Of a stretch of 64,000 bases of DNA, positions 251 through 55,820 are shown one piece after another. Source of the DNA: a virus; the IMG/VR virus record IMGVR_UViG_3300043429_000130, positions 55,643 through 119,642 of that record, one strand, 5' to 3'. How positions within the stretch are numbered: the first letter of the stretch is position 1; every line of letters starts with the position of its first letter. The notes beneath the pieces were generated by a model. The model did not search any database, had not been told where the DNA came from, and worked only from the letters and a program-made list of their open reading frames with translations. Made by a program: the position numbers and the translations under genes.

Positions 251-3200
251 TATCTAATTTGTTTTGTAGTTCTTCAATCTGTTTTTGTTGCTCTTTAATA
301 GCTTCAATAAGCAAAGGTACTATCTTCTCGTACTTAACTGTTAAGAAGTTCTCTCCTGATTTAGATACACCCATGTTATTATCAAATGGAGCTAATTTAA
401 CAGCTTCAGGTAATACCTCTTGTACTTCTTGTGCAAACACACCTGCTTCTCTTGTTTCTGTATCAGGTTCCCAACCATGTTTACTACCTACATTATTCCA
501 TTGATAAGTCATACCTGTTAGCTTCATCACCTTATCAATAGCATTATCTATAACTTGAATATTATGCTTTAATCTTTTATCAGAAGCATAAGCTATAATA
601 TCATAATACCCACGGAAGTGATTATCACCGTCATTTACAGAAGCTGTAATTGTAGCCCAGTCTGAGTTATTATAAAATCTAGTTCCATTATAACCATAGT
701 AAGCACCAATCTTAATACCTGTATGGAATGCAATATGTAAATCTGGGTAAGGATGAGACCATGATCCAGTTTGTCTATATATAGCATAACTATAATCTGA
801 GAAACTATTACTAAAATACAAACCAAATGGATGATCAGTAGCAACATCATGAATATTTCTAGTATAATGTGTAATTAAACTATGTAATCTTGAAGTACTA
901 TTTGGATCTAAATAATATGATGTATCATTTCTATCATAAAATATATTAGCATGTATCTCATTTACATCATAAACTGTATTACCATTTAAATACATAGTGC
1001 CATATAACCAGTTAGTACCTGTACTATATATACCTGATGGGTGATAAGATGCTGAACCAGTTCCTGCTACATTTGATGTTCCTTGAATAGAATAAGCAGA
1101 TAAGCCTGAAAATTTAACATCTGGATTTATAGTAGTACCAATTGTACCAAAAGAAGTAACTATTGATATATTCCAACCTGTACCTTGACTTCCTGCATCT
1201 GATGCTCTAAATCCAGAAGTAAAATCTAAAACACTAACTACTGGATATGACCATCCAGTGTTTGTTTCTCCAATCCATACACAGTCTACACCATCTTGAT
1301 TACCAAATCTTACAGTATGAACAGGTGCATTACTTCCACCTATAAAGGTAGCAGAAGAATTATATCCTCCTTGATCGTATGCATAGTTACCTAATAAATA
1401 CTCAGATGTTTGATTAGTAGAATAATTATAAATTCTAACTTTCATAGTCCACATAGGATTATTACCTCTAAAAGGTAATTTAATCCTTATAGCTCCAGTA
1501 GAACCGTCAGAAGAAAATGCTGCTCCTTTAGGTGCAAATACTCTACTAACAACGTTTGGAGATGAAGAAGAGTACCCATTACTACCAAAAGAACCATCAG
1601 AATGAATATTACCTGCAATACGTAAAGATGTACCTGATGTATTAGGATCTAAATAATATCCTCTATCGTTGTTATCATAGAATATAGTACCATAAACTGC
1701 TCCACCAGATTCTAAATATGAAGAAGCATATAAATAATCAAAACTTCTTTGTGAAGTTGTTCCAGAACTAGATGCGTAGTTAACGGATTGAGATCCAATG
1801 TTACCAGCATGTATAACAGGACTTCCTGCAGATATACCGCCACTAGTACCATTTATATATAACATACCTCTGATTTTAGTATTACCAGAAGTATCAACTA
1901 TTAATCTACCATGATGAGCATCGTTGCCTGACCAAGCATCACCAATACCATAATGACCATTACCATCTTGAAGATCGCTGTATCCAATGCTAAATATACC
2001 AGGATTATAGTTAGCAATACCCATAGTCCATAATCTATATCCTCCAGCACTTAAAGTTCCACTCATTACTATATAAGCACCATGAGTAGTATTAGTACCG
2101 TTATAAGCATTCAAGTGTAATGCTGGATAGTAATCAGCATTTATTGCAATAGCTTTTCTATTATCATCAGCATATATACGTGATGAAGTATCTATACCTA
2201 CACGTAGTGATGTATATGAGCTTGCATTAGGAATCTTTAATGCACTTAAGTTTGAAACACCATTAGGGTCTACATAATATCCTGTATCATTAGAGTCGTA
2301 GAATATTGGTGCTCTCATAGAACCTGCTGCTTCCATATAAACATGAGAGTACACTCTAGCATCTTCTATAAGAAGTCTACTATTACCACCAACCATCATA
2401 TTTACACTATGGCCTGTATAACTTCCTATAAATACAGAACCTGGAGTATGCACATACATACCTGCTTCAATACCAGGTGTTCTAGCATGTAATACAAATT
2501 TAACATGAGGACCATTACTAAATCTTACTTGAGTACCCCATCCACCTGGATCTGACCAATCATCTCCACTATCTCCTACATAAAGGTTTCTTAAACGTGA
2601 ACCTCCTGCTGGATTAAGATAATATGCTGTATCATTTGAATCGTAGAAAATAGGAGCACGCATGTCATCTCTAGCCCTAATAGAACCAGAAACAGCAGCT
2701 AAAAATGTACCATTTTCCATTACAAGAAGACCATGTGTATTAAGGTTTCCTGCTACACCACCTGCATTAGGATGAGACCAAGCTAAACCATAAAGTGAAC
2801 CTGTAGTTGTACCATCAGCAGGTAACTTATATGCGTCTCCCATTGCAAATACACCTTGATATCTAGTAGATGTATACACACCTACTACAGTGTTGCCATA
2901 GTTATCATCTATATAAAAATTACCATTAGCTCCATTTGCAGTAGTAGCATTACCACTAATATTCATACTAACACCACTCATAGCAGAAGCTAAACCTTGT
3001 AATGTATAACTTCTAATATAATAATCACCACTATTAAAACCAGCTATATAACTAATACCAGTACCTCTTTCAGAACCACCACCAGATGTATAGAAATAAG
3101 AGTTTTGAATGTAACCATTAGAATCACGTTGTACTATTGTATTAGCACCACCTGTTTGATTAGGACCATAACCTCCCAACTGTGAAGAGTTTGTTGCTGT

Positions 3201-23148: not shown

Positions 23149-25341
23149 CTATTTCATATTTTTAAAGGGGTTACGGTGTCCTTTAGAACCGAGTGTACTA
23201 CCTTTAGAGCCACCGATATGTCTAAAGGGGCTCCAATTTAATTTACTAAATTTCTGGGAGTTATCCAAGTTTTCTTTTGTAACTTCTACACGTTTAGTCA
23301 GTCCTCTGTTACTTTGTTGGACCTTTGCAAAGGCTATAAGGGCACAAAATGCTACTAACCTATCCACGTTTAGTCCATCTCTGTAAGCTTGCATTTCACG
23401 TAGAAGCATAATATCTGGTATACGTTCTGCTCCGTATATTGTTTTTACAATGTCTCCGTTCTCTTTAGTCTCATGATCAAGCTCTTCTTTTAAGAATTCA
23501 ATCCCATAAGACAACACTGTACCCTTGAATAGTGTACCCACGTTCTTCCATCCATATTCTTGGAATACGTTACGGTTGGCACCAATGTCTTTTAAGAACA
23601 AGATCATATCTTTTGGTACAAGATATCTCTGCTTTTTCTTGCTTATCATATACTGAATGAATAAAGCTACGTTATTTTCTACAACGGTCCAAGCATTATA
23701 CCATTCTATAAGAAGCTCTAGACGTTCATGGGTTTTGTTAAGATCATCAAAACGTCCACACCATGATGCTACAATCATGTCACGTTCTATCTCGTTTTTA
23801 ACCCTACCGTTACCGTCATCTTTAATAACCTCCACTGGATTCTTATATACGTATATAGAACATAGTGATTCAGATGTAGTGGTCTTTCCTTCTCCAACAG
23901 GGTCCACAGAAGCATAGTACATCCCAAATGGTGGATCTTTATGAGGTCTTTCGTAGATACAGATCACTCCCTCTTTGTCTTCAGTCTTTTTAGATATAGG
24001 AAACTCCATGATAGGAATCTTTCTAGATGGTTTGTCTACTATCTTACCCTCAGCATTTCTAGAAAGCTCTAAGTATTCTACAGAATATTCTTTATCCTGA
24101 ATACGTTGCATCTGTTTAGCAACCAAGTGTGGAGGGAACACACTCACTTTACGGGTAGCAAAAGCTTCTTCAATACAACGTGGTTGCTGAGATACAGTAA
24201 GTTGATAAGCTGCCGGGTCTAAATCCCTTTTCATCTTCTCAAATTCTTTCTCTAGAGCCTCTAAAGCTTCCTCCACCTTAGAGTTGCCCCACTGATCAAT
24301 ATAAGGGGGCATAGACCACTGTTCTGGAATAAATAGACCAGTTATACCAATTGTTCCGTCCTTGTCTACAAGGCTACTTTCTACCCCATAGAAGCCATTC
24401 TCTTCTGGGTGTAGGATATATTCCTTCATTGGCTCACACTGATCTAGATCACCGACTGATCCAGCTGCAATAAACTGACCAGTGATCATGTGACCAGACT
24501 TAAGTGCTGGCTTCATAAATCCATACGTGTCATCCATCTTAGGTGCGATACCTGCTTCCTCATGAAAGAAGTATGTTACAGGTCCACCGACACCATGTGT
24601 AGGGTCTTTTTCAAAGGAGTATAGGTTGATCGTGGATTTCAAACCTTTATACGTGTCACGACCACCTATCCTCACCTTAATCTGTTGCTGCCATGCCCCA
24701 ACCTTGTCAGGCTCAGCTGGACGATACCAGGCTGTGTGTTCATTTAAGAAGTTCTTATATTCATTAAGAAACTTCCATGAGCCTTTCTCGTTTATATAAT
24801 CTTTTAAAGAAGCCCCTATCTTTAATACAGCTCCTTCTTCAAACCAATATTGGTTGATAAGCTTAGCCATATGGAAATAAGAAGAGGCTATCTGACGCTT
24901 CTTTAGAATAATAGCGTGTTTCCAGTGTAGTTCAGCTAAATGCTCATATAGAGCCATGTGATATTGTGCATCCCTCACCTTAGCAAAGTCAAACCTTTTC
25001 TCTTCTTTGTCATAAATAGGTAAGAAGTTCAACCACATATAGTAGTCTCTGCTTATATACCACTTTTCATCACCGTCTTTTACAATGATTCCATTACGGC
25101 ATTTTGCTTTTTGGTCATTCCAGTAGGCAATAAAGTCTTTTGTCTTTACAGGAGCTGCACAATAATATCCTTGTTTTTGAAACTTACGACCTTCTTCATT
25201 AAAGATCTTACTAGTTTCATTAAAGTTATACTTACCAGGCTCTTTAAAAATAAACAACAAGAAGTCTCTAAACTCTTCTCTTGTATAGAAGGTGGTTACG
25301 TCCCATTGACCATTCTCGTATGTAGGTATTTCTCTAAACAT
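23149..25341 (-). CDS. terL: Terminase large subunit
   Basis: Walker A-like LKKRQIASS, Walker B FFHEEAG, RNase H-like YASVDPV, VVENN and DRLVA motifs. Confidence 0.9.
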   Translation of the reverse strand: MFREIPTYENGQWDVTTFYTREEFRDFLLFIFKEPGKYNFNETSKIFNEEGRKFQKQGYYCAAPVKTKDFIAYWNDQKAKCRNGIIVKDGDEKWYISRDYYMWLNFLPIYDKEEKRFDFAKVRDAQYHMALYEHLAELHWKHAIILKKRQIASSYFHMAKLINQYWFEEGAVLKIGASLKDYINEKGSWKFLNEYKNFLNEHTAWYRPAEPDKVGAWQQQIKVRIGGRDTYKGLKSTINLYSFEKDPTHGVGGPVTYFFHEEAGIAPKMDDTYGFMKPALKSGHMITGQFIAAGSVGDLDQCEPMKEYILHPEENGFYGVESSLVDKDGTIGITGLFIPEQWSMPPYIDQWGNSKVEEALEALEKEFEKMKRDLDPAAYQLTVSQQPRCIEEAFATRKVSVFPPHLVAKQMQRIQDKEYSVEYLELSRNAEGKIVDKPSRKIPIMEFPISKKTEDKEGVICIYERPHKDPPFGMYYASVDPVGEGKTTTSESLCSIYVYKNPVEVIKDDGNGRVKNEIERDMIVASWCGRFDDLNKTHERLELLIEWYNAWTVVENNVALFIQYMISKKKQRYLVPKDMILFLKDIGANRNVFQEYGWKNVGTLFKGTVLSYGIEFLKEELDHETKENGDIVKTIYGAERIPDIMLLREMQAYRDGLNVDRLVAFCALIAFAKVQQSNRGLTKRVEVTKENLDNSQKFSKLNWSPFRHIGGSKGSTLGSKGHRNPFKNMK

Positions 25342-25631
25342 TATTTGTTACCATCTACACTGGTTATCTTATTAATATGCTCAAGATTACCTTTACCTCT
25401 ATGTAGTAAATACAACAGTGTATTTATGTCTTTACTACGCAGAATACCTTTCATTTCATAGTTACTCCAGTAACCAGTGTACAAATGTCTAGGAATAGCA
25501 TTCCATAAACTAGTGTAAGGGTTAAAATGAAAAACCCAGTCTTGCATAAACTCATACTTCACATCTGATTGTTCCTCCACTGGAGAAAACTCCTTGATGT
25601 TTTCATAATCTGTGTAAACTTCTTGTTTCAT
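25341..25631 (-). CDS. Hypothetical protein (likely start ATG 25631)
   Basis: MKQEVYTDY...WVFHFNPYTSLWNAIPR. The longer ORF in the track runs through the RNA region and is probably over-extended. Confidence 0.7.
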   Translation of the reverse strand: MKQEVYTDYENIKEFSPVEEQSDVKYEFMQDWVFHFNPYTSLWNAIPRHLYTGYWSNYEMKGILRSKDINTLLYLLHRGKGNLEHINKITSVDGNK

Positions 25632-25653
25632 AATATTTTTATTTAATAATTTA

Positions 25654-25757
25654 GGAAAGCAGAAGATGGGTGCGTGGACATCTGCTTTTACAACTGGCAT
25701 TTCTAACCGATCACGTACGGCCCTTTCTACAGTTAAAAGTACGTTATTCCAGTCAAC
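25654..25757 (-). ncRNA. Structured RNA element directly downstream of the tRNA-like gene
   Basis: Stems TGACTGG/CCAGTTG, ACGTAC/GTACGT and AAAGCAGA/TCTGCTTT. GC-richer than the flanks. Confidence 0.4.
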
Positions 25758-25763
25758 CTTTTG

Positions 25764-25933
25764 CTGTAGAGGGTGGACTCGAACCACCAAGGTGAGATTC
25801 AATTGATAACACAACGCTTGCAAGCTGGTGGTCTACCCCATATTATCAATCTATTTCTGCATCACCGCCCACGAGACAGGTGGGTACGTTTGCCAAGGCC
25901 ATAACTGAGACAGCCAAATTTCGTCACTCTACA
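25764..25933 (-). tRNA. Atypical 170-nt tRNA-Asp(GTC)-like gene with expanded D-loop and 79-nt variable region
   Basis: Acceptor TGTAGAG/CTCTACA plus discriminator G. T-arm GGTGG-TTCGAGT-CCACC. Anticodon arm CCCAC-CTGTCTC-GTGGG. D-stem ACG/CGT. No encoded CCA. Confidence 0.7.
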
Positions 25934-25939
25934 ATTTTA

Positions 25940-26590
25940 CTACTTGTTATACTCATATTCTAGTATCTTACCAACAATATCACTACGATGGTTTTCTTTT
26001 AGTTTGATCCACTTAATCTCACTAATCTTTTTAGATAGTTCAATAGCATAAGTCAAACCTGTAACACTATGTTTAGTGTCTTGTTGTTCATTATCACCGT
26101 TAATAATAATCTTACCTGTTTTACCAAGTCTAGTTAGAATAGCCAGCATCTCAGTTTTAGTGAGGTTTTGTGCTTCTTCTACAACTAAGATATCATCTAT
26201 AGTTTTACCACGGATAAACTGTACAGGATAAGCAATGATCTTCTCATCTTTTACCATAGACTGAATCTTCACTTTGTCTGCACACTTTACTAGATTCTCC
26301 TGAAAAGCTTCTAGATAAGGATTAAACTTCTCATCTAGAGATCCTGGGAGGAATCCTAAAGAGCTACCTACCTCTATAGTGGCACGTGTTACAAATATTT
26401 GGTCACACTGCTTCTTATTTAGGAAATCTAGTGCACTTAATGCACATACTAAAGATTTACCACTACCAGCTCTACCTGTAACTATTACAATCTGGTTTTC
26501 AATAATTAAACGTCTAGCTTCTCTCTGTTCATCATTAAGAGTTACATGATATTTAATTTCTTGTTTACGTTCTCTGTTTGGCTCTCTCAT
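25940..26590 (-). CDS. phoH: PhoH-like ATPase
   Basis: GRAGSGKS Walker A, LGFLPG, FIRGKT, EEAQN, LTRLG, GDNEQQD and NHRS motifs. Start likely MREPN at 26590. Confidence 0.92.
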   Translation of the reverse strand: MREPNRERKQEIKYHVTLNDEQREARRLIIENQIVIVTGRAGSGKSLVCALSALDFLNKKQCDQIFVTRATIEVGSSLGFLPGSLDEKFNPYLEAFQENLVKCADKVKIQSMVKDEKIIAYPVQFIRGKTIDDILVVEEAQNLTKTEMLAILTRLGKTGKIIINGDNEQQDTKHSVTGLTYAIELSKKISEIKWIKLKENHRSDIVGKILEYEYNK

Positions 26591-26597
26591 GTTTTTA

Positions 26598-27110
26598 CTA
26601 TTGGTCATACGCTAAGTTTTGTCCTCCTCTAACTTGAGACTGTTGTTCTTCCATTAAGTCTCTGTACACTCCCTTAAAACTTTGTCTAACAGAGTCAAAT
26701 CTTTCTGCAATTCTAAGGATGGCTGTAGCAGATCCGTCTCTGCCAGATGTCACTTTTTCTGTAGCCATAAAGCCGGCCATGTTATCTAGTGCAATCTTAA
26801 TACCCTGGTATGCTCTATATGTAGGAGTTTCGTACATTTTCTTACACATACGTAATCCATTTATTACAAGATCATCTTCTGTAGAAAAATCACCGTCCAC
26901 TTCTGCTAGAATGATATCTTCTTTATCTGTTTCAGGAACATCAAAGAAAGGATTTAAATCTGGGTTAGGACATGTCATGTAGAATAAGTAAGAATACACC
27001 TTAGTAGATTCATCACCATACTCATCCATAATATCTTTTAAAAACTTTAAGGTGTAACAGTGTTCACTAGGAACCACCTTACCATTAGCTATATCAAATA
27101 ATCTTACCAT
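26598..27110 (-). CDS. Conserved crAss-like hypothetical protein
   Basis: 170 aa ending RGGQNLAYDQ, in the packaging gene neighbourhood. Confidence 0.65.
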   Translation of the reverse strand: MVRLFDIANGKVVPSEHCYTLKFLKDIMDEYGDESTKVYSYLFYMTCPNPDLNPFFDVPETDKEDIILAEVDGDFSTEDDLVINGLRMCKKMYETPTYRAYQGIKIALDNMAGFMATEKVTSGRDGSATAILRIAERFDSVRQSFKGVYRDLMEEQQSQVRGGQNLAYDQ

Positions 27111-53687: not shown

Positions 53688-55820
53688 TTAGAAGTTATTA
53701 TAACCTGTTAATTTAATTTGAGTAGAGTTAAGATTAATACCTAACTGATTTCCTTTTATATCTGCAGCATCCATAAGAGGTGATACCTTTACAGATGTAA
53801 CAATATCAACACCTTGACCTATTGTACTAAATTTAAGTTTAAATGGTACACTAGTTCCTTTGATAGCCTCTGAGTTGTTTTTATCTAGAGCACCAAACTT
53901 AACACGACCATCTTTAGAGCTTGCAAATACATACCAAGTGTTTGGTACAGTAGCTAATAGCTCTTCAAACTTAATCTTAGCTGGATCAAATGTAAATTCA
54001 AATTGTAATCCAGTGACAGATGCACCTTTTGTATCTATACTAACTGGAATTTCTACAGTGTTAGATGTAACAGTTAAATTATTTAAGTTTACATCAATAA
54101 CATTTAAACTTCCAGGTGTAGTAATTGAAGTACCTGTACTATTAGATTGAACAGCCATAGTTCTAAAAGCAGTGTTGGTAGCCAAGCTATTAACTGCATT
54201 AGTCTGTACTGAAGTGTTTCCTCCACTCATAGCAACTACTTGAGAAGAATGAGATCTATTTACATCACCCCATAAAAGATACTTAAGATCTAAAACAGCA
54301 TTAGTACCAAGTGTGCCTGTTTTAAATAAAGTACGAGGCATAGTAATAGTCTTCCAGTTTGACTTAGTAATAGAGCCCCAAGAATTATTTACAGATGTAT
54401 TCATCTCAAACTCTGCTCTAAAGCCATAATCAGATCCCTGCATATTTCTTATAGAAGAGATATATGTACTAGAACCGTCAGTAACTTTTGTTAGAGAAGA
54501 TGGTAGTCTGTATATAGCCCATGTTCCATCATTACTTACAAACTCAACAGGGCCAGTGTAAACGTCAAACAATTGTACAGATTTAATCTGATCAGCTGTA
54601 ACACCACTAGGAAACTCTCTTGCATCAATATGTAACTTACTTATACCATTAGAGTATCCGTTTACAGTAACGTAAGCCCATTCTACTTGACCTGCAATAG
54701 TTGTAGCATTAGCTGCATTCCATGTAGGAAGACTCATCCATCCACCACTACCTGATGTATAACCATTAGGAAGCATCATTAAAGTATCTATACCAGCTAC
54801 TTGTGCTAATAATTGTGGTAGATCACCACCATCAATAGACTTATTACGGTTAATATCTGCAGCAAATAATGATTGTCCAGTATTTAAACTTTGACCATTA
54901 GATCCATCCAGTCCCATAGATGTAAATTCACCTTGAGCTGAAGTAAAATCTGAGATAGTAATAGCGTTGTTATAAATATTATATAACTGATCCATATCAT
55001 GCATTACACTAACATCATATACAGTATTAGCATTTAACTGAGATTGATTAATATCAACCTCTCCTGTAGATGTAATAGGAAATAATACACCCTGGTTAGT
55101 AAGAGTATCTCTAAATGAAACTCTTAAATTAGATAGATTAAATAAGTTAGAGTTAATATCTACTTTAGCTGACACATACTTACCAAAGTTTTGGTTCATC
55201 AAAACAGAAGTAGATAATGGAGCTTCCATTATTGTATTGTCCCATGTACCATCTGCTTTCCAACCTGCTACAAAGTTTAATTTAATAGGATTAAACGTAT
55301 ATGCTGTAGAAGCAGCTTTAAGTCTAAATCTTATTCTAATAAAATCACTATAACCACTATATGGCATAGGTGAATTAGTAGCCCAAGATAGTGTTGTTCT
55401 TAAAATAGCATTAGGTCCACCAACTCCATTAAATGTATAACTAGCATATTGATAGTTAGTAGTACCATTAGCTGTGTTATTAGCAGCAGATCCTGATGTA
55501 ACTGAATTCCAGGTATAGTTAGGATAGTTATTCCAAGATAACTGTATTGTAGAGTTTTGAGGAAGAATACCACCGTTTCCCCCTGTCCCGGTATGGTTAA
55601 CTGAAACTAACTCAAAGTTTACCTGATCATACATAATATCAAATAACAACTGACGTGTAGTGTTGTTATTCATACCATTACCATAGATGATATAGTCAAA
55701 AGTGTCTCCTCGGTTAAGAGAAGACCCTCCTACAAACGTAGAAGCTTTAAACTTTTGCTGAGCAGAAACCTGTACAGCAAAAGCCAATAAAACCGTAACA
55801 AAAAGTAATACTTTTTTCAT
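53688..55820 (-). CDS. Secreted cohesin/dockerin-like domain protein
   Basis: Signal peptide VSA-Q. Cohesin-like LFDIMYDQVNFELVSV and VEIPVSI...GLQFEFTFDPAKIKF. Dockerin-like ADINRNKSIDGGDLPQL and GDVN. Confidence 0.7.
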   Translation of the reverse strand: MKKVLLFVTVLLAFAVQVSAQQKFKASTFVGGSSLNRGDTFDYIIYGNGMNNNTTRQLLFDIMYDQVNFELVSVNHTGTGGNGGILPQNSTIQLSWNNYPNYTWNSVTSGSAANNTANGTTNYQYASYTFNGVGGPNAILRTTLSWATNSPMPYSGYSDFIRIRFRLKAASTAYTFNPIKLNFVAGWKADGTWDNTIMEAPLSTSVLMNQNFGKYVSAKVDINSNLFNLSNLRVSFRDTLTNQGVLFPITSTGEVDINQSQLNANTVYDVSVMHDMDQLYNIYNNAITISDFTSAQGEFTSMGLDGSNGQSLNTGQSLFAADINRNKSIDGGDLPQLLAQVAGIDTLMMLPNGYTSGSGGWMSLPTWNAANATTIAGQVEWAYVTVNGYSNGISKLHIDAREFPSGVTADQIKSVQLFDVYTGPVEFVSNDGTWAIYRLPSSLTKVTDGSSTYISSIRNMQGSDYGFRAEFEMNTSVNNSWGSITKSNWKTITMPRTLFKTGTLGTNAVLDLKYLLWGDVNRSHSSQVVAMSGGNTSVQTNAVNSLATNTAFRTMAVQSNSTGTSITTPGSLNVIDVNLNNLTVTSNTVEIPVSIDTKGASVTGLQFEFTFDPAKIKFEELLATVPNTWYVFASSKDGRVKFGALDKNNSEAIKGTSVPFKLKFSTIGQGVDIVTSVKVSPLMDAADIKGNQLGINLNSTQIKLTGYNNF

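Follow-up and report, generated by a model that had tools for sequence, protein, structure and literature searches.

A 64,000-nucleotide (nt) stretch of viral DNA, positions 55,643 to 119,642 of IMG/VR virus record IMGVR_UViG_3300043429_000130, contains a 170-nt gene for an RNA with the shape of a transfer RNA (tRNA). We refer to the whole of this stretch as the window. We hold with high confidence that this is a real and conserved gene, and that the RNA is derived from a tRNA and does not function in decoding. The evidence comes from the structure and conservation of the RNA, from a family of relatives in bacteria and phages, from the gene contexts of the family, and from its presence in RNA libraries, all of which we observed. 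Over 150 bacterial copies were found that keep the stems by compensatory changes.

Structure and covariation of the tRNA-like RNA

The RNA is read from the minus strand, such that RNA position p corresponds to window coordinate 25934-p. Its parts are as follows.

25764..25933, minus strand: whole tRNA-like RNA gene, 170 nt (sequence read and RNAfold cloverleaf)
25927..25933, minus strand: 5' strand of the acceptor stem, UGUAGAG, pairing with 25765-25771 (7 of 7 pairs)
25764..25771, minus strand: 3' strand of the acceptor stem, CUCUACA, and the discriminator G at 25764 (sequence)
25886..25924, minus strand: D arm, with a stem of 3 base pairs (bp), ACG/CGU, 25924-25922 with 25888-25886 (sequence, fold, and alignment)
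25897..25915, minus strand: D-loop hairpin located 5' of G18 G19, 19 nt, 6 bp (two of them G-U), loop CUCAGUU
25868..25884, minus strand: anticodon arm, CCCAC / CUGUCUC / GUGGG, 5 pairs
25789..25867, minus strand: variable region, 79 nt (fold and covariation)
25827..25839, minus strand: conserved apex motif of the variable arm, GGGGUAGACCACC
25772..25788, minus strand: T arm, GGUGG / UUCGAGU / CCACC, with a canonical T loop

The length, the coordinates, and the intact acceptor, anticodon, and T arms agree with what an initial annotation of this DNA had described, once the minus strand is read. Directly 3' of the gene is the sequence CAAAAGG; the base following the discriminator is C and, as annotated, CCA is not encoded. 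The D loop keeps A14, G18 G19, and A21 and is of the class II (tRNA-Leu-like) type. The anticodon loop contains U33, the anticodon G34 U35 C36 (GUC, 25877-25875), U37 (25874), which is the pyrimidine previously noticed at this position, and C38 (25873). The variable region is long and folded as had been claimed, with two covarying stems: a 5-bp basal stem (25866-25862 with 25795-25791) is separated by an internal loop (AGAAAUAG / UGAAUC) from a second stem of 11 bp, two of them G-U (25850-25840 with 25812-25802), which leads into the apex. The apex motif contains GAC (25833-25831), the complement of the anticodon GUC. The heptamer CTGTCTC was correctly placed in both the anticodon loop (25879-25873) and the D-loop insert (25913-25907); it is not enriched across the window (7 matches against 6.9 expected).

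Folding with RNAfold produced the same cloverleaf, with an unexceptional energy (z = -0.82; 40 of 200 shuffles folded equally well or better). The support for the fold is covariation and not stability. At default settings ARAGORN called neither a tRNA nor a transfer-messenger RNA (tmRNA), whether in the window alone or across the full 119.6-kb record. Rfam 15 holds no family for the RNA; it gave no match in the window at gathering scores and nothing tRNA-like at E values up to 10 in 25600-26100. With relaxed settings ARAGORN gave mutually inconsistent calls, among them Asn with an 89-nt intron and Asp(atc), which were not used.

Related phage sequences were collected through a search with the PhoH protein, which yielded 281 related viral stretches, 80 of which were retained. 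Reading of the intergenic regions combined with a pattern scan, covering 54 stretches, gave 79 copies including that of the window; these reduce to 29 distinct sequences of 95-170 nt, to which one of 157 nt was added. The full-length RNA is 94.7-97.1% identical in 7 other viral loci, and further loci match it in the anticodon and T-arm parts only. The variants form a graded series, the shortest form (95 nt in our own extraction) having a 25-nt variable arm and the longer forms having stem-loops inserted at a single point of that arm. In the alignment of the 30 distinct variants, 97.2% of the cells pair and 14 of the 42 pairs change on both sides. None of 500 shuffles reached either value, and slid partners paired in only 38-51% of cases.

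Aligned with their homologues, the stems of both inserts show covariation. The D-loop hairpin is present in 16 of the 30 variants and all of its cells pair, with one pair changing from C-G to U-A in 5 of the 16 and another from U-G to U-A in 2 of the 16. The insert had been taken for a hairpin in the initial annotation, and its six pairs and covarying stem bear this out. The likening of its loop to a second anticodon loop does not hold, the loop being 6 or 7 nt long and differing in sequence among relatives (CUCAGUU, CUCAGU, CUCAGC, CUCUGUU, AUUAAUU). Of the 16 hairpin-bearing variants, 11 have the repeat CTGTCTC unchanged and 4 have TTGTCTC in its place; one lacks it. In the variable arm, two pairs of the basal stem change on both sides across the 30 variants; the second stem, with 11 pairs, has 7 that change on both sides, 3 that change on just one, and a single invariant pair. 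Two pairs covary in the anticodon stem in phages, and two in the T arm in phages and three in bacteria. The D stem is invariant in the phage set, and all three of its pairs covary in bacteria. Note that the invariance of the anticodon loop in the 30 phage variants must be read together with the search pattern, which itself demanded that loop.

These results bear on decay, which the initial annotation had named as an alternative and in which the locus would be a decaying tRNA gene with insertions. The failure of tRNA finders and of the Rfam tRNA model would fit such a history, as would the unexceptional fold energy, but every stem is intact and covaries, the inserts are conserved, near-identical copies recur in the 7 other viral contigs, DNA runs of many studies contain the stretch, and the family is common to bacteria and phages. 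Judged from the sequence, the intact stems, the covariation, and the recurrence appear to rule decay out, and we consider it extremely improbable.

A bacterial family and its Lrp/AsnC-type regulator

One-genome-per-species bacterial contigs were searched with a pattern consisting of the anticodon loop, the conserved apex motif, and the T loop. At least 120 stretches matched, nearly all from Bacteroidota; the genera and groups listed are Dyadobacter, Spirosoma, Larkinella, Emticicia, Arcicella, Flectobacillus, Aquirufa, Cyclobacteriaceae, Saprospiraceae, and Chitinophagales. The few stray matches, in Streptomyces and others, appear to be accidental. With a covariance model derived from the phage alignment, 108 matches were found in the first 100 of the listed bacterial loci, all but two of them at 78-125 bits, and tandem arrangements of 2-3 copies were frequent among these matches. 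Five named host genomes each contain 1-2 strong matches, while RNAs of 82-89 nt in the named hosts score only 28-50 bits with the family model and are read, from their length, as class II tRNAs. The family model matched 13 of 151 genomes in an even phylum sample (two of the 13 being seeds) and 29 of 151 in a class sample.

In the bacterial alignment of 105 distinct rows, which was fitted to the covariance model, 27 of 36 pairs change on both sides, a value reached by none of 500 shuffles. The acceptor end is nearly fixed at its first three pairs (U1-A72 in 102 of 103 rows, G2-C71 and U3-A70 each in 103 of 103), and pairs 4-7 covary. Counts of the discriminator G exclude copies that do not end in CAG. 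The base after the discriminator is C in all 155 distinct bacterial and all 29 distinct phage copies (184/184), with the full CCA encoded in 13 of the 155 and in none of the 29. U35, C36, and C38 are kept in every parsable anticodon loop, including those of short-armed bacterial copies. Positions 33, 34, and 37 vary in the short-armed relatives; some family members carry G33 or C33, and G34 is found in nearly all copies. Every long-armed copy observed has U37, and the apex motif of the GGGUUGACCAC type is found in long-armed copies of both phages and bacteria. The Rfam tRNA model stayed below its gathering score on the 95-117-nt phage forms and on the bacterial forms, and ARAGORN called none of 132 long-armed viral copies. 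A literature search, which did not cover supplements, found no title or abstract describing such a family.

Two side observations concern the variation of the family. In bacterial members at loci L146 (801-964, minus strand) and L393 (1501-1664, minus strand), an unrelated 8-bp hairpin, recognized by eye, lies at the D-loop site that holds the phage insert, which suggests independent insertions at one tolerant site. Locus L420 of the class sample (1501-1576, minus strand) holds a 76-nt relative that has no long arm, scores 65 bits with the family model, and shares the UGU...ACAG acceptor end, its loop reading CUAUCUC; it is possibly a class I-sized member or an ancestor of the family.

The neighbors of the bacterial copies were examined by clustering of open reading frames (ORFs), Pfam searches, and a targeted count. 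Among the matches listed, a regulator of the Lrp/AsnC type (PF01037 and PF13404) is located upstream of the RNA gene and divergent from it in 89 of 119 loci, with a gap of 31-306 nt between the two (median 156 nt). For 9 of the 30 loci lacking the regulator, less than 400 nt of upstream sequence was available. The same arrangement was found in 20 of 24 loci recovered by the model alone. Divergence from the target gene is the usual layout of Lrp/AsnC-type regulators. The gene sufB follows the regulator in 55 of the 89 loci, and we examined whether the regulator is a gene of the suf operon. This was ruled out, as none of 30 sufB loci of the phylum sample has such a regulator within 1.5 kb; the regulator therefore goes with the RNA and not with suf. 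The arrangement suggests that the level of the RNA in the host is governed by amino-acid supply. No homologue of the regulator was found in the phage (best tblastn E value 0.26), nor was a class IIb synthetase.

Phage gene contexts and RNA libraries

The window is the 3' half of the 119.6-kb record of a lake phage, which is estimated to be 92% complete. Three further features adjoin the RNA gene.

25940..26608, minus strand: PhoH-like gene (PF02562, E value 9.3e-49), upstream of the RNA gene, its stop codon 6 nt before the RNA
25656..25758, minus strand: second conserved structured RNA, beginning 5 nt after the discriminator and ending in a hairpin before the next ORF
23149..25341, minus strand: large terminase gene, downstream, 730 amino acids, distantly crAss-like (tblastn)

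In tblastn, terminases of crAss-like and Flavobacterium phages align to 85-89% of this terminase at approximately 25% identity, and the host of the phage is therefore probably a member of the Bacteroidota. Searches of isolate phages by megablast (25000-27000) and blastn (25640-25940) found no match in 50,697 phage records, and thus no near relative in any cultured phage of that collection. A promoter and terminator scan of 25300-26700, which does not extend to Bacteroidota promoters, found 4 promoter-like sites against 4.5 expected and no terminators.

The family pattern is present in at least 119 viral contigs, some of them over 300 kb. Of 132 viral loci analyzed, 55 belong to the lineage of this phage and have the RNA ahead of the terminase. 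In 65 of the 132, canonical tRNA genes are found no more than 400 nt from the RNA, which is usually the final gene of the array, on the same strand, and often follows tRNA-Ser. A canonical tRNA-Asp(GTC) shares the array with the RNA in 15 distinct arrays, indicating that the RNA is not the tRNA-Asp of these phages. In the window phage the RNA is the only tRNA-like gene in the whole record. Since phages treat the RNA as a tRNA gene, a tRNA-type maturation is likely. Outside the lineage of this phage, the regular neighbors are an RNase H-like protein, a metallophosphoesterase, an M23 peptidase, a lysozyme, and unknowns. No ORF of at least 400 amino acids lies on the strand of the RNA within 150 nt of it in the viral loci; five such ORFs of at least 330 amino acids (330-359) do, one of them in a cluster with a Pfam-scanned representative.

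The array position raises the question of decoding. The RNA could be a specialized tRNA-Asp, its arms a tolerated decoration, that supplies the reading of GAC and GAU codons during infection. ARAGORN calls a 96-nt tRNA-Asp(GTC) from the shortest form in 5 of 60 loci, U33 and the anticodon GUC are present, and position 37 is a purine in some of the short-armed relatives from bacteria. Set against these points are the pyrimidine U37 here and in all long-armed copies observed, G33 or C33 in relatives, the canonical tRNA-Asp standing alongside in the 15 arrays, and a 79-nt arm far beyond known class II arms; moreover, elongator tRNAs are not kept as a regulator-controlled gene of a single purpose. 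Of the features of a decoding elongator, U33 is found in the window RNA and a purine at position 37 is not. We regard a decoding role as improbable. U37, G33 or C33 in relatives, the giant arm, the coexisting tRNA-Asp, and the dedicated regulator argue for a non-decoding RNA, in agreement with the earlier suggestion that this is not a normal decoding tRNA.

The presence of the family in RNA was examined in four metatranscriptome runs from four studies, all available as contigs, using matches at least 85% alike; such contigs show neither ends nor strand. Contigs cover the tRNA-like RNA in three of the four runs, with summed depths of up to 365, 31, and 15, and run X18 has none; these depths sum relatives with different flanks, probably hosts. 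The second element is covered in all four runs (27-388) and is the deepest part, with one contig containing two copies, and the phoH stretch is covered at a depth of 0-15. In the four runs, 25762-25773 is not covered by any contig, and none links the RNA with phoH or with the second element. The data show that members of the family are abundant in RNA libraries with their inserts in place, a statement that applies to the family and not to this phage's own copy. The idea of a processed precursor from which the inserts are excised finds no support, as the inserts are present in the RNA-library contigs. What is new for this window is the covarying D-loop hairpin, the graded 95- to 170-nt series, and the RNA-library cover.

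Two observations from these libraries were not used as evidence, as tandem genes and a CCA end look alike in contigs. Adapter sequence terminates two contigs, from two studies, where the T stem meets the acceptor stem. In a contig of run X17 (25787-25936), the ...ACAG-CC of one copy is followed by A-A-U and then by the 5' end of another copy, whose acceptor stem is different; either a relative has the two genes in tandem, spaced by 5 nt, or the join is something stranger.

The second structured element consists of an outer helix (GACUGG/CCAGUU), a hairpin with a covarying stem, a stretch of conserved sequence (GAUCGGUUAGAAAUG), and a closing hairpin whose loop is rich in C. The loop of its variable hairpin contains, in this phage, CUGUAGA, complementary to the 3' acceptor strand of the tRNA-like RNA. 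Its core was found in 67 of 228 viral loci, being conserved in many related loci, and in 0 of 192 bacterial loci; it is an element separate from the tRNA-like RNA and specific to phages. Over 25600-26100, Rfam gave only a chance-level Atu_C9 match on the second element (13.9 bits against a gathering score of 40). An HDV-like theta ribozyme, which would have a nested double-pseudoknot fold immediately 3' of a phage tRNA, was also considered here; no Rfam HDV (hepatitis delta virus) family matched at E values up to 10, and the HDV helices could not be traced by eye.

The location between phoH and the terminase gene allows for the RNA to be a processing or stability signal of the operon, at which RNase P and RNase Z would cut between the two genes. 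The RNA begins 6 nt after the phoH stop and is followed by the second structured element and the terminase module, and in distant relatives a normal tRNA-Met fills the slot after phoH. However, the bacterial copies are stand-alone genes linked to a regulator, the phage copies are found in many unrelated contexts, and neither the conserved anticodon loop nor the 79-nt arm would be needed for punctuation. We consider this explanation very improbable. In the distant PhoH relatives (L070-L080), the region about 20-250 nt downstream of the phoH stop contains another conserved non-coding stretch of approximately 130 nt and then tRNA-Met(CAT). In L073, L074, and L080, ARAGORN also calls a putative tmRNA at a distance of about 200 nt beyond these.

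Identity elements, proposed function, and known systems

The fixed acceptor end and discriminator point to an enzyme acting at the 3' end of the RNA, and the fixed U35, C36, and C38 together with the nearly fixed G34 point to an enzyme that reads the anticodon. The strong bacterial determinants for aspartate listed in PMC9976931 are G73, G34, U35, C36, and C38, with G10, G1-C72, and G2-C71 as further ones. All five strong determinants are present in the window RNA, making AspRS the best candidate for the enzyme. The initial annotation had held that the aspartate identity elements are all present; this is correct for G73, G34, U35, C36, C38, and G2-C71, but its list was incomplete, as the RNA has A10 and U1-A72 instead of G10 and G1-C72.

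We favor, tentatively and as something short of probable, a model in which the RNA, as the phage's version of a Bacteroidota family of class II (tRNA-Leu-bodied) look-alikes with an aspartate-type anticodon loop, is matured like a tRNA, charged, most likely with aspartate, and kept off the ribosome as a carrier or sensor. According to this model, the RNA would be transcribed with the phoH and terminase genes, excised by the tRNA-processing enzymes of the host, and supplied with CCA. Its invariant acceptor end would be charged, in all likelihood with aspartate by AspRS, which reads G34 U35 C36, C38, and G73. Exclusion from the ribosome would be due to U37, the D-loop hairpin, and the folded variable arm of 79 nt, in which a GAC-containing loop may mask the anticodon. 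Once charged, the RNA would act outside translation, as a carrier or sensor. In the host, the Lrp/AsnC-type regulator would set the level of the RNA, and the phage copy, having no regulator, would escape this control. That the RNA is processed, charged, and excluded from the ribosome is inferred from the sequence and its relatives, as is any part played by GatCAB. The contact by which GAC would cover the anticodon is geometrically conceivable. A GAC loop accompanies GUC in 144 of 144 copies, most of which were found by a pattern demanding both, and in 10 of 10 copies of a model-only sample.

Within this model, the version that we favor, although we consider it unlikely, has GatCAB, selecting U1-A72, convert the aspartate to asparagine on the RNA. 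U1-A72 is described as a positive mark by which bacterial GatCAB picks Asp-tRNA-Asn (PMC1635274; PMC2811023). This mark is present in the window RNA as well as in the bacterial rows (102/103). AsnRS, GlnRS, and GatB are each encoded in all five named host genomes, with AsnA in none of the five and AsnB above the curated cut-off in none; Deinococcus, Thermus, and Bdellovibrio are reported to have both synthetases together with GatCAB (PMC4206432). In the phylum sample, GatB is found in 126 of 151 genomes, AsnB above the cut-off in 16, and AsnA in 4, and most of the sampled Bacteroidota may make asparagine on tRNA. As a separate observation, GatB and AsnB of the E. coli type are nearly mutually exclusive, 13 of the 16 AsnB genomes being among the listed GatB-negative ones. 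In a fuller version, very slightly less likely, a tRNA would have become a metabolic cofactor: AspRS and GatCAB would carry out asparagine synthesis on it under the AsnC-type regulator, the arm, U37, and the GAC loop masking the anticodon would prevent insertion of asparagine at aspartate codons, and phages would bring in a copy free of regulation that raises the supply of asparagine during infection.

Several results weigh against the charged, ribosome-excluded RNA or its GatCAB versions. Among G10, G1-C72, and G2-C71, only G2-C71 is present, A10 and U1-A72 replacing the other two. U37 is not universal in the wider family, G37 or C37 being found in some short-armed bacterial copies. As 15 of 16 armless copies in the model-only sample also have G34, the co-occurrence of GAC and GUC is not covariation. 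No aminoacyl-tRNA synthetase, amidotransferase, or other partner is a regular phage neighbor in the 132 viral loci, and the RNA-library depths sum relatives that are probably hosts. The combination of GatB with no AsnB is found in all 13 RNA-bearing genomes of the phylum sample, but this has a chance expectation of about 9% and the combination is also the commonest make-up. The Asn_synthase domain (PF00733, E value of 1e-50 or lower) is present in 10 of the 13 RNA-bearing genomes and in 69 of the 138 others. Finally, the tail of GatB is described as binding the D loop and lying near the variable loop, and an extra D-loop base as blocking amidation (PMC2811023); here a hairpin of 19 nt occupies the 5' portion of the D loop and a 79-nt arm is close to this docking site, and the giant arm and the D-loop hairpin could hinder GatCAB. 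Replacement of an asparagine synthetase by the RNA was also considered: there is no negative link at the level of the domain, and the AsnB result is compatible with replacement without discriminating for it.

A doubtful but serious alternative is that the RNA mimics a tRNA but is never charged, and that the phage floods the cell with it. As a decoy, sponge, or regulator, it would use its tRNA core and its extra arms to bind a protein that handles tRNAs. Its targets could include an anticodon nuclease, a tRNA-guanine transglycosylase, a synthetase, or a starvation sensor. The non-decoding features and the large, conserved, sequence-specific internal loops of the variable arm fit a mimic, as does the retention of this one tRNA-like gene by the phage, and the regulator adjoining the host gene suits a regulatory RNA. 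Phage tRNAs have also been described as countering defenses that target tRNAs (PMC10264068, PMC11464382, PMC11555353). On the other hand, a nuclease decoy would need neither an invariant acceptor end nor a fixed discriminator with a C following it, and the host gene is found at a conserved chromosomal place with housekeeping neighbors (the regulator and often sufB), not in a defense island. Of the three options put forward in the initial annotation, the aminoacylatable mimic is thus the best fit, and the decoy for anticodon nucleases sits poorly with a conserved, regulator-linked gene of the host chromosome.

A further alternative is charging with serine. SerRS, recognizing the arm and G73 and ignoring the anticodon, could produce a seryl-RNA for missense or regulatory use. 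Serine identity in bacteria is attributed to G73, G2-C71, R4-Y69, C11-G24, and a large variable region (PMC9976931), all five of which are present in the window RNA; allo-tRNAs, described as class II-like and in many cases having GUC, provide a precedent (PMC5389517, PMC7609411). tRNA-Ser is also the commonest array neighbor, with 36 genes (18 tga, 18 gct) within 400 nt in the 65 array loci. But the RNA has A72 instead of C72, C11-G24 is replaced by U-A in 79 and by U-G in 14 of 104 bacterial rows, and the acceptor/T layout is 7/5, not 8/4 or 9/3. SerRS would have no use for U35, C36, and C38, which are nonetheless strictly conserved, and serS is adjacent to the RNA in none of the 132 viral loci. 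We accordingly give serine charging little probability.

Compared with class II tRNAs such as tRNA-Leu (RF00005), the RNA has the same 7/5 acceptor/T layout, 3-bp D stem, and canonical T loop, with one base before the variable stem and two after it. Its D loop (AAAUUGGCA...) we take to be close to that of tRNA-Leu. Variable regions of class II tRNAs are roughly 13-21 nt. The RNA differs from tRNA-Leu in its 79-nt variable region, the D-loop hairpin, G73 rather than A73, the anticodon GUC, and U37. With tRNA-Asp(GUC) it shares G73, G34 U35 C36, C38, and G2-C71, whereas U1-A72 in place of G1-C72, A10 in place of G10, the class II body, and U37 set it apart. With tRNA-Asn as the substrate of GatCAB it shares U1-A72 and G73; unlike tRNA-Asn it has the anticodon GUC, not GUU, and a giant arm and D-loop hairpin at the place where the GatB tail docks. 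Allo-tRNAs are likewise long-armed with G73 and non-serine anticodons, GUC being among the commonest, occur in bacteria and phages, and may be regulatory (PMC5389517); as described, they differ in an 8/4 or 9/3 layout and in arms of ordinary size, and are reported from Clostridia, Proteobacteria, and Acidobacteria (PMC5389517, PMC7609411). The word 'Bacteroidetes' is absent from the main text of both papers, whose supplements may hold such sequences.

If our model is correct, a branch of the Bacteroidota and many phages, from 120-kb crAss-like phages to contigs of over 300 kb, keep a non-decoding, tRNA-shaped RNA, with an amino-acid-type regulator of its own. This would explain why a phage with no other tRNA gene keeps only this RNA, and would offer a testable handle on how asparagine is handled in bacteria that lack AsnA and AsnB. 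Missed by ARAGORN and Rfam, the RNA is left unannotated by both tools in every genome tested here. The cultured carriers Dyadobacter, Spirosoma, Emticicia, Aquirufa, Arcicella, and Flectobacillus make experiments possible. Known tRNA look-alikes that act outside translation include tRNA-Other of Bacillus cereus, the cell-wall tRNA-Gly of staphylococci, and the tRNA-like domains of YrlA and Y RNAs, which have the shape and processing of tRNAs and some of which are charged. The Y-RNA-like families of Rfam have no match in the window, and we know of no RNA among these look-alikes that has an 80-nt structured variable arm, a D-loop hairpin, or an Lrp/AsnC neighbor. The RNA described here, if our model holds, would represent a new class among the few non-translational look-alikes of tRNA.

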